The notes below the pieces were generated by a model. That model searched no databases. It worked only from the letters and a program-made list of their open reading frames with translations, and was not told the origin of the DNA. The translations under genes were made by a program, and so were the position numbers. Shown piece by piece: positions 19,862 to 57,820 of a DNA stretch of 64,000 bases. This DNA comes from Candidatus Kaiserbacteria bacterium (GTDB lineage: Bacteria > Patescibacteriota > Minisyncoccia > Phycocordibacterales > UBA918), in the NCBI GenBank assembly GCA_031430855.1, contig JANPCG010000013.1:26347-90346 (forward strand), given 5' to 3'. Numbering within the stretch: the first letter of the stretch is position 1; each line of letters opens with the position of its first letter.

Positions 19862-20133
19862 CCGCGTACAGAAAGCCCCGCAAGGGGCTATTTCTGTACC
19901 CGGTGCTTGGGGAGTAAAGCGCCTGCGCGCTTTACGTGCGGGCTCGAAAGGCGCAGACATGTGTTGCTCGTAAGAGCAACAAGTCGAGCCGGGGTCGCGA
20001 ACACTTTGTAGATTATGAGCGTAGCGAAATAATGTACTTAGTGATTCGTGACCGGGCCCACCCCACAAGGGGCTATTTCTGTACCCGGTGCTTGAGGAGC
20101 AACTTACTAATATCAGTTGCGTGCGGGTGAGGA

Positions 20134-20210
20134 GTGACTTAATGTCACTCCGCAAGACCTTGCCAGCTCTTTTGGAAAAAGAGCTGGCAAGGTATACAGT
20201 TTCTGTAAGA
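20134..20210 (+). repeat. Structured repeat element (GTGAC-N5-GTCAC dyad plus hairpin), copy 2
   Basis: Paralogous to 17671-17756, with perfect hairpin ccttgccagctcttt-tggaa-aaagagctggcaagg. Confidence 0.5.
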
Positions 20211-20272
20211 TCGGCGCGTCGGGGTCGAGAGTACTTACTAGAATTAGAGCCGAAGGCGAACAAATATAGTTA

Positions 20273-34061: not shown

Positions 34062-34230
34062 TTTGGTATATCCTCCGATGTTGGTACCAAGGGTAATAAA
34101 TTATCACATTATTGAAAAATGTCAAATGGGGGTGGGTGGCGTTTGGGTATTATTTGAGCGCGAAATTGAAGCCTTTTGCTCTGTGGTCATCACTCGAGTA
34201 CGAAACTGAAGCAGTTCAGAAAGCCCTCGT

Positions 34231-34321
34231 GGTCACGAATCACTAAGTATATTTGTTCACTGCGTTCCAAATCTACTAAGTGTTCTCGACCCGAGAAACA
34301 GTGTTTAGACACTGTTTCTCC
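34231..34321 (+). repeat. Modular intergenic repeat, units A+B
   Basis: A-unit: ggtcacgaatcactaagtatatttgttcactgcgttccaaatctactaagtgttctcgaccc. B-unit hairpin: gagaaacagtg-tttagac-actgtttctcc. The units recur at 56.7 kb, 57.1 kb and 36.4-36.7 kb. Confidence 0.55.
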
Positions 34322-34830: not shown

Positions 34831-34870
34831 TGCGGAAGCGAGAGGATTCGAACATTACATGTTCGGTACA
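34831..34870 (-). repeat. Partial direct copy of the tRNA-Ser 3' end (23 nt) plus conserved junction palindrome
   Basis: tgcggaagcgagaggattcgaac matches 34953-34975 exactly. It is followed by ATTACATGTTCGGTACA, forming GAACAT-TAC-ATGTTC. Confidence 0.6.
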
Positions 34871-34954
34871 CCTTTCGTATCGTACCCACTCCGTTCCGTG
34901 CGATGTACTTAAGGTCTTCAAATCCTCTTTTGAAACTGACGTTTCAAATTCCTG

Positions 34955-36296: not shown

Positions 36297-36425
36297 ACAA
36301 AAACTGAAATTGCTAAGTGAAGAGTAGTTTAGCATATTTTGATGAGAGGGATGTGGGAATAAGAAAACCAGCCGGGTGGGCTGGGTTTCTTGGTCTGAAG
36401 ATTTTTGGAAAGAAATACCGGCACC

Positions 36426-36487
36426 GGTCACAAGTTACTAACCATAATCATTCGCTACGCTCTGATTCTAGTAAGTACTTGCGACCC
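36426..36487 (+). repeat. A-unit repeat copy (36.4 kb, a)
   Basis: ggtcacaagttactaaccataatcattcgctacgctctgattctagtaagtacttgcgacccc. Confidence 0.5.
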
Positions 36488-36603
36488 CGGCGGGCTGGTT
36501 CAGGGCATTAGTAATAGCCCTTCACATCGCTCCGCCTCGCCGTTCCGGCTTCTTGCTAGTCAAAACTTATTTAAGTTTTGATCGACGCAAGAAAGCCGGC
36601 ACC

Positions 36604-36665
36604 GGTCACGAGTCACTAATCATAATGGTTCGTTTCACTCCCCTTCTGATAAGTGCTCGCGACCC
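36604..36665 (+). repeat. A-unit repeat copy (36.6 kb, b), in the ftsZ 3' region
   Basis: ggtcacgagtcactaatcataatggttcgtttcactccccttctgataagtgctcgcgacccc. The terminal stem covaries with copy a (caag/cttg versus cgag/ctcg). Confidence 0.5.
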
Positions 36666-53595: not shown

Positions 53596-54642
53596 ATGAA
53601 TCTCGAAACCCCAAGACAATTTCGTGATGCACGACCGCGCGATGAAAAGCGGGCTGCCATCTTGGCTGATGTGCGCACGCGTACGACGTTGTCGTTTTAC
53701 CGTTACGTAAAAATTACTGATCCGGTAGCGTTCCGCCTGCGACTGCTTAATGCGCTTGCCCAGTTTGAATGTCTGGGTCGTGTCTACGTCGCTCACGAGG
53801 GGATTAATGCTCAGATGAATGTGGTGAGCGAAAATTTTACTGCGCTTGATGCCTGGGTTCAGTCTCAGCCAGAATTGTCAGGGATATTGTATAAAATTGC
53901 CGTTGCAGAAAAGGATTTCTCTTCGTTCTATAAACTAACTATTAAAGTAAAGGAAAAGATTGTGGCTGATGGCCTTAATGATGCCAGTTTTGATGTCACG
54001 AACACTGGTGAGTACCTCACTGCCGCTGAGATGAATGAGTATATTGATGATCCAGATGCAATTGTCGTTGATATGCGGAATGCGTATGAGAGTGAAATTG
54101 GTCATTTTGTTGGTGCGGTTAAACCGGATGTTGATACCTTCCGCGAAGAATTAGCAATCGCGCCGTCTCTGTTGCGGGTCCATCAGAACAAAAAAATTGC
54201 CCTTTACTGTACCGGTGGAATACGATGCGAGAAGGCGAGTGCGTGGCTCAAGCATAATGGGTTTGAAAACGTGCGTCACCTCAAGGGTGGGATTATAGAC
54301 TATGCGCATCAAGTGAAAGAACAGGGGCTCGAGAATAAGTTCCTCGGTTCTAACTTTGTCTTTGATGAACGATTAGGAGAACGGGTAGGCGATGAAGTTA
54401 TTTCACACTGCCATTTGTGTAGCAAACAAAAAACGGATACCCACTATCACTGCAAAAATCAAATCTGCCACGTTTTGTTTCTTGGCTGTGATGATTGTGT
54501 AGCAAAGCGGCATGGCTATTGTTCTGGTCGGTGTGAAATGTCTGATAAATTACCGGTTAGTGTGAAAAAAGTATTTGCCCGATATTACAACCAGTATTTC
54601 CGCCGGCCGCAGTTCAAGAAAGCTCGATTTCGTGCCTTATAG
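53596..54642 (+). CDS. trhO: Rhodanese-domain tRNA uridine(34) hydroxylase TrhO (YceA/UPF0176)
   Basis: GRVYVAHEGINAQ, rhodanese loop CTGGIRCEKAS, C-terminal Cys cluster. Confidence 0.8.
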   Translation: MNLETPRQFRDARPRDEKRAAILADVRTRTTLSFYRYVKITDPVAFRLRLLNALAQFECLGRVYVAHEGINAQMNVVSENFTALDAWVQSQPELSGILYKIAVAEKDFSSFYKLTIKVKEKIVADGLNDASFDVTNTGEYLTAAEMNEYIDDPDAIVVDMRNAYESEIGHFVGAVKPDVDTFREELAIAPSLLRVHQNKKIALYCTGGIRCEKASAWLKHNGFENVRHLKGGIIDYAHQVKEQGLENKFLGSNFVFDERLGERVGDEVISHCHLCSKQKTDTHYHCKNQICHVLFLGCDDCVAKRHGYCSGRCEMSDKLPVSVKKVFARYYNQYFRRPQFKKARFRAL

Positions 54643-54676
54643 TCCTCAGGCTTGGTTGTGTTAGAGTAGAGATATT

Positions 54677-56191
54677 ATGGATACGAAAGGGTCTAATCCG
54701 AAGCGAATTACCTCTGTGTACTATGATGGGAGCTGTCCAATGTGTACGGCGTTTGTGGGAGCTACCGCGGCCAAAGACGAGACCTTATTTGCACTCCATG
54801 ATGTCATCATTGATTCACTGCCTGCAGACTTCACCAGAGAAGCGGTCCTGAAGGAAATGCATGTCGTTGGTGCCGATGGGACAGTATATACCAACGCCGA
54901 GGCGATACTGCAGATATTAGATACGGTGCAGTATTGGCGACGAATCACCTGGATTGGACGACTGCCGGTGGTGCGGAATGTATTGCCGGTGGGGTACGGT
55001 ATTGTGGCGCGTAACCGACACTTTATTTTCGGACCCGCGAGCCGGTTGTTTTGGGTGAAGAATGTCGCTTTGCTGGGGCTACTCTCCAGTATGGCGCTGT
55101 CGTTTCCTTTGTGGGTGCAAACGGATAGTATTGCAGCGGTACCTGTCTTTGGTCGACTTCCAATTCTCTCACCGTTAATTGAATGGGGAATGTATATAGG
55201 GGTGTTTTGTTTAGCCTTGGTTAGTTTGATTTCGCCTAGGCCACAGCGTTACTTGTGTGGACTATTGGGTATTGTGGCGGTATTTGTACTGTTTGATCAA
55301 TTGCGTCTTCAGCCATGGCTCTATCAGTATTGGTTTATGCTACTGCCACTTGCTGTGTATTCGTGGCAGTGGCGAGATAGGGTATCGACGAATGCGGTTC
55401 TCAATACCCTCCGGATTTTAATTGCGGGGATATATTTTTATAGTGGGCTACAGAAAATTAACCCAATGTTTTTCCAAGAGGTGTTTCCCTGGATGGTAGA
55501 ACCAATTGCCGCGTTTCTCCCGACCTCTCTTAATTTAATACCAGCGAGTTTTGGATTATTTGTCCCGTTTATTGAAATAGGGATTGGTATAGGATTGCTT
55601 ACAAAACGATTTAGGTTTGCTGCTTTGGTTGGAGTTATTTGCATGATGGTATTCGTTCTCATCACACTTGGACCTCTTGGTTATGGTTGGAATAGTGTCG
55701 TCTGGCCATGGAATTTAGCTATAGCGGCGTCAGCGTGGCTGTTGTATTACAAGACCGCTAATGTTTCTTTTAAAAACGTATTTAGAGTAAGGCACTTTCT
55801 GCCTCATAAAGTAATCATTTTACTTTTTCTTGTAATGCCTGCCTTCAGCTTTTTTGGGTATTGGGATTCGTACCCATCCTATTCGTTGTATTCGGGGAAC
55901 ATAACTGACGCCCAAGTATTCGTATCATCTAAATTGGTAAGTCCAGCTTTAGAAAATGCAGCGTTTTTAGCTTATGGTGGTATGGTCTGGATAGACCTCC
56001 AGACACTTTCGTTTAATGAACGTAATGTGCCGATGTATCCTGAGACAAGAATCTACACGAAAGTATTTGCTCAGCTATGTGAGACTGAGTTGCCAGTCAC
56101 GGCTGAACTCGTCGTGACGACCAAAACCACGTTGCTGCAACCCCAGAGAGAATTACGGTATAAGTGTGAAAATATGTTGAGTAGTGATTGA
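54677..56191 (+). CDS. DCC-family thiol-disulfide oxidoreductase (DUF393) fused to an HTTM-like polytopic membrane domain
   Basis: N-terminal VYYDGSCPMC (DCC motif), then ~10 TM helices rich in Trp and Tyr. Confidence 0.5.
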   Translation: MDTKGSNPKRITSVYYDGSCPMCTAFVGATAAKDETLFALHDVIIDSLPADFTREAVLKEMHVVGADGTVYTNAEAILQILDTVQYWRRITWIGRLPVVRNVLPVGYGIVARNRHFIFGPASRLFWVKNVALLGLLSSMALSFPLWVQTDSIAAVPVFGRLPILSPLIEWGMYIGVFCLALVSLISPRPQRYLCGLLGIVAVFVLFDQLRLQPWLYQYWFMLLPLAVYSWQWRDRVSTNAVLNTLRILIAGIYFYSGLQKINPMFFQEVFPWMVEPIAAFLPTSLNLIPASFGLFVPFIEIGIGIGLLTKRFRFAALVGVICMMVFVLITLGPLGYGWNSVVWPWNLAIAASAWLLYYKTANVSFKNVFRVRHFLPHKVIILLFLVMPAFSFFGYWDSYPSYSLYSGNITDAQVFVSSKLVSPALENAAFLAYGGMVWIDLQTLSFNERNVPMYPETRIYTKVFAQLCETELPVTAELVVTTKTTLLQPQRELRYKCENMLSSD

Positions 56192-56200
56192 GATAAATAT

Positions 56201-56236
56201 AAATAAATCCCTCATAAGAACGAGGGATTTATTTTT
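56201..56236. terminator. Bidirectional terminator
   Basis: aaataaatccctc-ataagaacg-agggatttattt. Confidence 0.55.
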
Positions 56237-56353
56237 ATGAGAGTAACACGAAGAGAGTGCGCGCGTGCGAGGTGACGGGGGCACCGCGCAAGACCATTTG
56301 AGCTTATTTTGACCGAAGGGAGTAAATGAGCCAAATGGTATACAGCTTCGGTA

Positions 56354-56386
56354 CGAAGAGGACTTGAATCTTACAGATTCTGTACA
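56354..56386 (-). repeat. Degenerate partial copy of the tRNA-Leu(TAG) 3' end plus covarying junction palindrome
   Basis: gaagaggacttgaatc, compared with the tRNA's gagaggacttgaacc. It is followed by TTACAGATTCTGTACA, forming GAATCT-TAC-AGATTC. Confidence 0.5.
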
Positions 56387-56432
56387 CCTTTTGGATATAT
56401 TCTCCCGCCGGTCGAATCTATCGCAAAAGGTT

Positions 56433-56485
56433 TTGAAACAGTTTCCCAAACTGTTTCAACCTCCACGGATTGCTCCATTAGTTCC
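56433..56485 (-). repeat. Perfect 12-bp hairpin plus a 28-nt exact copy of an internal tRNA-Leu(TAG) segment
   Basis: ttgaaacagttt-ccca-aactgtttcaa. aacctccacggattgctccattagttcc matches 56528-56555 exactly. Confidence 0.5.
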
Positions 56486-56509
56486 ATTTTGTTTGTAAAC
56501 CTTTCAAAG

Positions 56510-56591
56510 TGCGCGCGAGAGGACTTGAACCTCCACGGATTGCTCCATTAGTTCCTAAGACTAACGCGGCTACCAATTACGCCACACGCGC
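56510..56591 (-). tRNA. tRNA-Leu (anticodon TAG)
   Basis: Class-II tRNA. Acceptor GCGCGTG/CGCGCGC (one G-U pair), anticodon arm ttagt-ctTAGga-actaa, long variable arm, T-loop GGTTCAAGTCC. Confidence 0.85.
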
Positions 56592-56672
56592 ACTTTGAAA
56601 ACTTTACTGTGTCGACGAGTATAGCATGAAAATAGGGGTTTGCCAGGGTTGGTGGTCGCACCAAGATTCTGT

Positions 56673-56767
56673 GGTCACAGATAATTTCTTTCATAAATTT
56701 CCGCGACCCGAGAAACAGTGTTTAGACACTGTTTCTCCCACTGTCGCAGGGCGACATGTCTCCGTCT
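56673..56767 (+). repeat. Modular intergenic repeat, units A'(short)+B+C
   Basis: ggtcacagataatttctttcataaatttccgcgaccc + gagaaacagtgtttagacactgtttctcc + cactgtcgcagggcgacatgtctccgtct. Confidence 0.55.
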
Positions 56768-56780
56768 CGCACCAGAGCAC

Positions 56781-56845
56781 GTATCTGCCGCAGGGCAGAT
56801 ACCAAACAATAAATACCATTCATTTGAATGGTATTTTATTGTTTG
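56781..56845 (-). terminator. GCAG-loop hairpin plus 19-bp perfect hairpin terminator of tRNA-Lys
   Basis: gtatctgcc-GCAG-ggcagatac, then caaacaataaataccattc-attt-gaatggtattttattgtttg. Confidence 0.55.
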
Positions 56846-56848
56846 CTC

Positions 56849-56924
56849 TGGTGCGCCCTCAAGGATTCGAACCTTGGACCGTCTCCTTAAGAGGGAGCTA
56901 CTCTACCAACTGAGTTAAGGGCGC
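56849..56924 (-). tRNA. tRNA-Lys (anticodon CTT), CCA encoded
   Basis: Acceptor GCGCCCT/AGGGCGC, D-loop AGTTGGTA, anticodon loop ctCTTaa, T-loop GGTTCGAATCC, 3' ACCA. Confidence 0.8.
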
Positions 56925-57000
56925 ATTGCTATGTATTAGTACATACGACCCGGCGTTCTTAATGAGGGCAAAGTGCATGGGATGCAGTTTGCGCGACACT

Positions 57001-57020
57001 ACTGAGTTAAGGGTGCAATG
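57001..57020 (-). repeat. Partial copy of the tRNA-Lys 5' acceptor/D-arm segment
   Basis: actgagttaagggtgcaatg, compared with actgagttaagggcgcattg at 56909-56928 (18 of 20 identical). Confidence 0.45.
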
Positions 57021-57090
57021 TATTAAGTTGTGGGCCAAAGTGTACAAGATTATGACCAAATTAACAAGGTATTAGTAGGGGCGTGACTTG

Positions 57091-57186
57091 GTCGCAAATC
57101 ACTAAGTATATTTGTTCACTTCGTTCCAAATTTACTAAGTGTTTGCGACCCCGACTCAACTGTCGCAGAGCGACATGTTTCCGTCT
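57091..57186 (+). repeat. Modular intergenic repeat, units A+C
   Basis: ggtcgcaaatcactaagtatatttgttcacttcgttccaaatttactaagtgtttgcgacc + caactgtcgcagagcgacatgtttccgtct. Confidence 0.55.
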
Positions 57187-57299
57187 TTCAAGTCCCGCAC
57201 GCAAGCAAAGCAGTTTGCTTGCTCCCCGGCACAAAATACAACTACCGCAAGCTATTGCTTGCGGTAGTTGTATTTTGTGCCGGGGAGCGGGACTTGAAC
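57187..57299. repeat. ~110-nt palindrome made of two inverted copies of the tRNA-Leu(TAA) T-arm/acceptor 3' segment around a perfect 19-bp hairpin
   Basis: Left arm ttcaagtcccgc[gcaagcaaa-GCAG-tttgcttgc]tccccggcac. Centre aaaatacaactaccgcaagc-tatt-gcttgcggtagttgtatttt. Right arm gtgccggggagcgggacttgaa. Confidence 0.55.
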
Positions 57300-57316
57300 A
57301 TTACATGTTCGGTACA
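57277..57316 (-). repeat. Partial direct copy of the tRNA-Leu(TAA) 3' end (23 nt) plus junction palindrome
   Basis: gtgccggggagcgggacttgaac, compared with the tRNA's gtgccgggagcgggacttgaac. It is followed by ATTACATGTTCGGTACA. Confidence 0.6.
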
Positions 57317-57429
57317 GGTTGTCGCCACTTTACTTCGCTTCCAGCTCATAAAGTTGCAGGCAACCTTTTCAAGTCCCTGGGGCAAATGCAAAAACTCCCC
57401 AGATAAAAATCTGAAGAGTTTTTACATTG

Positions 57430-57513
57430 TGCCGGGAGCGGGACTTGAACCCGCACGGGCTTGCGCCCACAAAATTTTAAGTCTTGCGTGGCTACCGATT
57501 ACACCATCCCGGC
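57430..57513 (-). tRNA. tRNA-Leu (anticodon TAA)
   Basis: Class-II tRNA. Acceptor GCCGGGA/TCCCGGC, anticodon arm caaga-ctTAAaa-ttttg, variable arm with a GCAA tetraloop, T-loop GGTTCAAGTCC. Confidence 0.85.
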
Positions 57514-57618
57514 ACTGACTTTTTTATGGAATCTTCCGTTACACGGACCGTATCCGTTGTCGCTATATTATTTCACTTCGTTCATAATCTAGCAGCCAAC
57601 AGCTTCGATTCCCTTGTC

Positions 57619-57662
57619 ATATCTAAAACAAAACATAAAGAAATATGTTTTGTTTTAGATAT
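57619..57662 (-). terminator. Perfect 19-bp hairpin terminator abutting the tRNA-Cys 3' end
   Basis: atatctaaaacaaaacata-aagaaa-tatgttttgttttagatat. Confidence 0.55.
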
Positions 57663-57663
57663 G

Positions 57664-57735
57664 AGACCGGGACGGGAATCGAACCCGTGCATCGAGGTTT
57701 TGCAAACCACTGCGTTACCGCTTCGCCACCCGGTC
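57664..57735 (-). tRNA. tRNA-Cys (anticodon GCA)
   Basis: Acceptor GACCGGG/CCCGGTC, anticodon loop ttGCAaa, T-loop GGTTCGATTCC, discriminator U. One U.U mismatch in the anticodon stem. Confidence 0.75.
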
Positions 57736-57779
57736 TTATTTGGATGTGATCTACTGTAGCATTTTTGTCTGAGTTAGAC

Positions 57780-57820
57780 AAAACAAACCTGGGTGCGTCA
57801 TATCGCACCCAGGTTTGTTT
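57780..57820. terminator. Bidirectional terminator (rbfA 3' end)
   Basis: aaacaaacctgggtgcg-tcatat-cgcacccaggtttgttt. Confidence 0.6.

Follow-up and report, generated by a model that had tools for sequence, protein, structure and literature searches.

Integrative elements such as phages, integrative and conjugative elements and genomic islands can target the 3' half of tRNA genes; an intact tRNA is regenerated on one side, and a direct repeat of its 3' part is left on the other. The boundary can fall within the T-loop, and serial accretion occurs at the same tRNA. An archaeal example, in which tRNA fragments were left by an integrating element, has been described (PMC3293823). In Patescibacteria (CPR), tRNA genes are also known to harbor group I introns, which lie in the anticodon loop (position 35/36 or canonical), match Rfam family RF00028, and self-splice (PMC13011429). 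Here we describe a locus that shares features with these systems but differs from each of them. It lies in a 64,000-nucleotide stretch from a Candidatus Kaiserbacteria bacterium (GCA_031430855.1, contig JANPCG010000013.1), referred to below as the window. Behind its tRNA-Leu(TAG) gene are two old, decaying copies of an apparently undescribed folded repeat of 90-170 nt, which follows tRNA genes in these ultra-small bacteria and in which each copy ends in a copy of its own tRNA's tail. The insert carries no integrase or any other gene, includes an inverted as well as a direct copy of the tRNA 3' part, and has a conserved three-way-junction fold; the same body occurs behind many different tRNAs, with its arms re-tailored to each. 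In contrast to the group I introns, the elements lie downstream of complete tRNAs, do not interrupt any tRNA, and have no Rfam match.

Other comparisons are looser. REP/BIME/REPIN and MITE-type repeats, as generally understood, are also short, extragenic, hairpin-rich and multicopy, and are often transcribed at the 3' ends of genes; they have constant ends, however, and do not copy their neighbor. In the present elements the inverted arms change with the adjacent tRNA, and the duplicated segment varies in length from 21 to over 45 nt, so that there is neither a fixed terminal inverted repeat nor a short target duplication; no RAYT or transposase was identified among the recurrent ORFs of the loci. 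Folded single-strand recombination sites, such as CTX-phage attP (XerCD) and integron attC, likewise appear to conserve structure more than sequence, fold in a strand-specific manner, pair inverted segments to rebuild a duplex resembling the target, and accrete in tandem, but the target here is a tRNA T-loop, not dif or attI, no Xer-type or IntI-type partner has been shown, and the resemblance is an analogy only.

The tRNA-Leu(TAG) locus and its neighbors

ARAGORN identified nine tRNAs in the window, and placed tRNA-Leu(tag) at 56509-56591 on the minus strand (Rfam tRNA score, 53.4 bits). An earlier note, made from the sequence alone, had described a palindrome and several tRNA fragments downstream of this gene, and all five features were confirmed. 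AGAGGACTTGAA at 56356-56367 matches the T-stem/T-loop segment of the tRNA at 56518-56529 in 12 of 12 bases, 140 nt beyond the tRNA 3' end. The dyad GAATCT-TAC-AGATTC lies at 56366-56380 and is followed by TGTACA. A stretch at 56455-56485 matches 56525-56555 in 30 of 31 bases, of which 28 are exact, and a perfect 12-bp hairpin lies at 56433-56444/56448-56459. Finally, the first 10 bases of 56256-56281, AGTGCGCGCG, equal 56508-56517, corresponding to the trailer base, the discriminator and the acceptor 3' strand; GAGG follows after a 2-nt insertion. The locus is not an assembly artifact: contigs from three independent SRA runs are 100% identical over 54231-56572, and an NCBI MAG contig (GCA_043735715.1) is 99.98% identical.

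Read in the sense of the tRNA (minus strand), the element proximal to tRNA-Leu(tag) includes the 56455-56485 segment, a sense copy of tRNA positions about 36-58 that includes the 3' strand of the anticodon stem, the variable arm, the 5' strand of the T stem and part of the T-loop. It sits where other elements carry an antisense strand of helix P1, and its GGAGG supplies the 5' strand of P1 here; a simple 70-bp tandem duplication does not explain it, as the rest of the unit does not match. The 12-bp hairpin arm (56433-56459) is followed by helix P2 (56387-56430; CCUUUUGCGAUAG...CCAAAAGG), and then by the junction UGUACA and helix P3 (56366-56386), which is the dyad, GAAUCU-GUA-AGAUUC in tRNA sense. 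The element ends at 56354-56369 in a decayed copy of the tRNA 3' part from T54 (ATTCAAGTCCTCTTCG in sense; termed S2), in which the T-loop and T-stem strand are kept and the acceptor strand is lost. A second junction motif with a GTA-loop hairpin (GGTATACA GCTTCG GTA CGAAGA; 56339-56360, plus strand) abuts S2 head to head; together with a long, P2-like hairpin at 56294-56338 (CCATTTGAGC...GCCAAATGG), it forms an older, inverted or rearranged second element. The copy at 56256-56281 (minus strand; S3), interpreted as the oldest, retains the acceptor strand (CGCGCGCACT, 10 of 10), whereas its T region is decayed; it lies just upstream of an intrinsic-terminator-like hairpin at 56201-56234 (minus strand) that ends the tRNA-Leu(tag) unit. 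Both elements therefore lie between the tRNA, which has a promoter-like site, and its terminator, and are probably transcribed.

We examined the flanks of all nine tRNAs. Eight, with the exception of tRNA-Arg, are followed in tRNA sense by one or more structured repeats. The TGTAC...GTA hairpin junction is found in several of these (Ser, Leu(taa), Leu(tag), Cys, and the second unit after Phe); others carry related modules, namely CTGTCGCAGRGCGACATGT, the core hairpin GGTCRCRA...YGCGACC, and GTGACCGTCAGGA. The element behind tRNA-Ser(cga) (34831-34953, minus strand) is canonical, with S2 at 34831-34853 identical to the tRNA 3' end in 23 of 23 bases and P3 at 34850-34864. The canonical element behind tRNA-Leu(taa) (57277-57428, minus strand) has S2 at 57277-57299, which differs from the tRNA by one extra C, and P3 at 57296-57310. 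These two loci share the exact 21-mer GAACATTACATGTTCGGTACA at 34850 and 57296, where none is expected by chance; relative to them (GAACAU-GUA-AUGUUC, preceded by UGUACCG), the Leu(TAG) dyad differs by two base pairs changed on both sides, C-G to T-A and A-T to C-G. A variant element between tRNA-Cys and tRNA-Leu(taa) (57514-57662, minus strand) has GUCCGU-GUA-ACGGAA as P3 (57534-57548). A perfect 32-bp palindrome at 57221-57288 consists of the S2 acceptor strand plus a terminator stem and their inverse copy, and begins the next, older element, whose core hairpin is at 57089-57151.

Distribution, tRNA copying and fold of the repeat

One genome for each of 185,579 species was scanned for the canonical 19-mer ACATTACATGTTCGGTACA, which gave 33 sites in 29 stretches (numbered with the prefix L below). 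Every stretch whose title names a group is a Patescibacteria MAG (Kaiser-, Nomura-, Zambryski-, Pacei-, Parcu- or Saccharibacteria); the rest are labeled only as uncultured bacteria. No hit was obtained among 2.9 million viral contigs. The window is syntenic with L006, a 'Ca. Kaiserbacteria' MAG, at 74 to 78% nucleotide identity, and with several other hits at 66 to 72%; some of the hits are fairly close relatives, and the breadth of the clade is uncertain.

At 26 of 35 sites (the 33 plus the two in the window), a complete tRNA lies upstream in the same sense, usually 58-140 nt away; the tRNAs are Val, Leu-taa/gag/tag, Ser-cga/gct, Ala, Arg, Ile and Cys. The bases after TGTACCGAACATGTAATG are then a copy of that particular tRNA from T54 to the discriminator plus C, always starting at or near T54. 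The last 20 nt of the tRNA recur 97-181 nt downstream (with one second copy at 361 nt), with no mismatches for 15 tRNAs and at most 2 mismatches for 22. At orthologous tRNA-Leu(tag) loci in L026, L022 and L030 the acceptor sequences differ, and each copy follows its own tRNA; the window's copy is the decayed one. In L012, L016 and L029 the copy runs on for at least 25 nt into the tRNA's own, non-tRNA flank. Tandem units with periods of 139-168 nt are found in L007, L012 and L013 (139 and 166 nt in L007 and L012), and L033 has two different bodies in series.

In tRNA sense, an element comprises a short hairpin or terminator; often an antisense copy of the tRNA acceptor 3' strand (A), followed by a hairpin; an antisense copy of the T-loop plus the T-stem 3' strand, forming the P1 5' strand; two bases, RA; a variable hairpin, P2; UGUACYG; hairpin P3 with a GUA loop; and the sense copy S2. 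P3 reads GAA-NN-U-GUA-A-N'N'-UUC, in which UUC is T54-C56 of the tRNA copy. The P1 5' strand is truly antisense, except at the Leu(tag) and L028 loci, since tRNAs with the nonpalindromic T-loop TTCAAGT have GGACTTGAA there and not GGTTCAAGT; it matches in at least 9 of 12 bases in 33 of 52 elements. Many copies also have an inverted copy of the acceptor strand further upstream, separated by a hairpin; in L020 the inverted copy is a perfect 20-mer. RNAfold predicted the same cloverleaf-like fold for six copies from different genomes, with z-scores from -2.5 to -9: an outer acceptor-like helix, a hairpin, and helix P1 enclosing hairpins P2 and P3. RNAalifold on six copies found compensating changes in 15 of 38 pairs, and the tRNA-sense strand folds better than its complement in 37 of 53 elements (p = 3e-4).

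The earlier note had proposed that the dyad arms covary, as expected for a site recognized through its structure or by a protein, and this was supported. A pattern scan ([AG]TAC-N-6-GTA-6, at least 5 of 6 pairs) of the window and the 29 related loci found 54 sites, against 0-5 in shuffles, with about 17 arm pairs; the GAATCT/AGATTC variant recurs in L022 and L031. On 50 distinct sequences 96% of cells are paired, and 5 of the 6 pairs show changes on both sides; no shuffle or slid register comes close, although this set was preselected for pairing. We also scanned, without selecting for pairing, the 400 nt downstream of 63 tRNAs; 40 of 50 candidate sites had at least 5 of 6 pairs, and most of the rest are off-register overlaps with the true site. 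The junction bases GUAC.G are conserved, but the GTA loop was fixed by the search pattern, so its constancy is not evidence; an IS200/IS605-type TTAC target was rejected, as TTAC, on the antisense strand, is simply this loop plus its closing base. What the note could not see is that the dyad is one helix of a larger cloverleaf-like element, that half of its 3' arm (TTC) is the first three T-loop bases of the tRNA copy, and that the additional tRNA fragments fit as serial leftovers of successive elements, not as independent pseudo-tRNAs.

Known RNA families did not account for the element. Gathering-score scans of the window and of eight related loci with Rfam 15 found only tRNAs, and E-value scans of 56150-57800 and of a canonical locus (L012, 5900-6800) gave only weak miRNA-type hairpin hits. 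No hammerhead, HDV, twister, pistol or hatchet core was matched, by eye or by Rfam, and literature searches turned up no description of the repeat.

Possible origins of the element

Given that S2 copies the element's own tRNA, we tentatively favor a non-autonomous insertion element aimed at the T-loop. We infer that each insertion happens at T54 of the live tRNA, supplies a replacement 3' end with its own flank, and pushes the former 3' end and any older element downstream, where they decay; template switching between nearby inverted repeats would keep the antisense arms matched to the sense copies. On this reading the Leu(TAG) locus carries two old insertions, which accounts for its mutated but compensated P3 and for the decayed S2 and S3. 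In two clear cases the more distal copy is indeed the more decayed: the second S copy in L033 is degenerate, and at window Leu(taa) a nearly perfect S2 is followed by a degenerate S3 near 57075. The palindrome at 57221-57288 matches the private extra C of S2 and not the live tRNA, so the arms were homogenized at the DNA level after displacement. One MAG (JAYVPP01; L030 and L033) has paralogous elements behind tRNA-Leu(tag) and tRNA-Cys that share the P2 subtype and the flank hairpin, while both arms fit the local tRNA, which shows transfer between unrelated tRNA genes with re-tailoring of the arms; similarly, the P2 subtype behind window Leu(tag), found behind tRNA-Leu(tag) in L026, sits behind Leu(taa) in L011. 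Insertion itself is not shown, however, since no pair of empty and filled sites was seen in a comparison limited to identical strain-level contigs and to L006, which is about 75% identical and is also occupied. Clustering of 211 ORFs from the 29 loci gave only local synteny groups, with no recombinase, transposase or other protein recurrently linked to the elements; copies within one genome are not near-identical, apart from tandem units, so there is no sign of a recent burst; and the sense copy at 56455-56485, with a similar one in L028, does not fit the simple model.

A strong rival, somewhat less likely and not mutually exclusive with insertion, is a host-selected structured RNA in the tRNA 3' trailer, transcribed with the tRNA and acting in cis, for example in trailer processing, protection against 3' exonucleases, termination, or as a protein-binding or catalytic motif; its closing helices would imitate the acceptor and T stems, and gene conversion with the neighboring tRNA would keep S2 and the antisense arms matched. 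Selection is suggested by the conservation of elements at orthologous sites: the Leu(taa) element is about 85 to 90% identical between the window and L006 outside the tip of P2, with compensating changes in its flank hairpin, against 74 to 78% for adjacent genes, and the Lys-linked element is 79 to 80% identical to L011 and L026, against 66 to 72% for the genes. The better fold of the tRNA-sense strand, the covariation of P1, P2 and P3, the 4 G-U cells in P3 with no A-C among the mismatched arm pairs that we read, the position of both Leu(tag) elements ahead of the terminator, the occurrence of elements behind eight of nine tRNAs in the window, and an element in L032 with an intact P1-P2-P3 but no recognizable tRNA copy are in keeping with this view. 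On the other hand, in many loci (L010, L024, L025, L027, L029) a good intrinsic terminator stands between the tRNA and the element, so much of the transcription would stop before it; an RNA function does not need perfect 20-32-bp inverted repeats or duplicated non-tRNA flanks; decayed serial copies and tandem arrays look like accretion; and the closing helix pairs through N73 and C74 and has no T-loop, making it a poor RNase P-type tRNA mimic, in addition to the lack of any match to an Rfam family or known ribozyme.

Two further explanations appear unlikely. Attachment-site scars of large integrative elements, later deleted, would account for the classic attL/attR-like layout and for a boundary that fits integrases crossing over in the T-loop. 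Among the 22 tRNAs with a direct repeat, however, none has one beyond 400 nt in the 8-kb loci, no larger element flanked by S copies was found there, no integrase genes lie nearby, the motif is absent from the viral contigs searched, the same 70-120-nt structured body recurs in dozens of loci and genomes, and independent deletions would not leave the same conserved fold. Decaying tandem duplicates of tRNA genes combined with chance palindromes are the least likely; the sense copy of positions 36-58 and the degenerate S2 and S3 at Leu(tag) could be read in this way, but an identical 19-21-mer junction lies beside unrelated tRNAs, the P1 5' strand is antisense, and the excess of hairpin sites over shuffles and the covariation contradict it. 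Neither ARAGORN nor the Rfam tRNA model (RF00005) calls these regions as tRNAs. To examine whether the elements interrupt a tRNA gene, every upstream position was joined to S2 in silico and ARAGORN was run on the 157,648 constructs; only the intact upstream tRNA reappeared.

Implications for Patescibacteria genomes

Patescibacteria have very small genomes, yet these elements follow most of the tRNA genes in the window. If mobile, they are an unusual class, far smaller than any integrase-bearing element and encoding no protein; if they are selected trailer RNAs, they are a new conserved RNA motif tied to tRNA expression in a phylum whose RNA processing is poorly known. A more speculative, and in our view improbable, possibility is that in single-stranded form (ssDNA or RNA) each element folds so that its inverted arms rebuild a duplex copy of the T-loop-to-3'-end segment of the target tRNA gene, a fold that would guide insertion at T54, replace the 3' end and displace the old one. 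Such a self-targeting, tRNA-mimicking module might be catalytic or run by host tRNA or recombination enzymes, with the UGUACYG/GUA-hairpin junction as its active or recognized site. In practice, the elements create tRNA-like fragments that can mislead annotation and att-site or prophage prediction, and they break MAG assemblies; the NCBI contig ends inside the palindrome at 57221-57288.

Shared modules in and beyond the tRNA-linked elements

A repeated hairpin of roughly 63 nt, GGTCRCRA...(loop TATATTTGTTCACTTCGTTCCAAATCTA)...YGCGACC, is found at 34230-34292, 36425-36487, 36603-36665, and 57089-57151 of the window, and in inverted orientation at 19990-20055. Its G-U pairs fall on the tRNA-sense strand. 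Two copies lie between a thioredoxin-reductase-like gene and ftsZ with no tRNA nearby, so this module also occurs away from tRNAs. Two further shared modules were identified in the elements behind tRNA-Lys, tRNA-Leu(taa), and tRNA-Glu: CTGTCGCAGRGCGACATGTYTCCGTCT, at 56741-56767 and 57160-57186, and the hairpin GAGAAACAGTGTTTAGACACTGTTTCTC, at 34293-34320 and 56710-56737.

A perfect 32-bp palindrome with a 4-nt centre is located at 57221-57288; it is made of the displaced tRNA-Leu(taa) acceptor strand plus a terminator stem, and the NCBI MAG contig JAYTDW010000013.1 ends inside it.

Copies of tRNA segments at the Phe and Lys genes

tRNA-Phe, on the plus strand, is followed by two serial units (19864-20270), each of which begins with a terminator-like hairpin and antisense copies of the tRNA acceptor and T segments (CCGGTGCTTGGGG, GTGCGGGCTCGAA). 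The second unit has a degenerate junction, GGTATACAGTTTCTGTAAGAT, with only 3 of 6 pairs. A partial copy of the 5' part of tRNA-Lys (ACTGAGTTAAGGGTGCAATG, compared with 56909-56928) is found at 57001-57020, upstream of the gene; unlike the 3'-side copies, this is a 5'-side fragment.

Variant junctions and tRNA 3' copies in related loci

Among the related loci recovered from other genomes, a different junction, ...CGACTCCTGA|C or ...GGACTTGTGA|C, precedes the tRNA 3' copy in L009 (tRNA-Glu), L026 (tRNA-Leu-taa), and L029 (tRNA-Val-tac), and the copy there starts at about C56/G57. This suggests sister families with other junction motifs, to which the Glu and Val elements of the window with GTGACCGTCAGGA may belong. 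In L018, another of the related loci, the displaced copy of the tRNA 3' part (S2) after tRNA-Leu(taa) reads ...CCTGGACA-CCA-TTAAAA, whereas the gene is followed by CAAAC. A CCA that the live gene does not encode could hint at an origin from the mature tRNA, although this is a single case and may be chance.

An acidic repeat protein

The region at 540-1240 of the window is a coding region with a 21-nt periodic repeat rich in GAT/GAA/GCT, that is, an acidic Asp/Glu/Ala repeat protein.
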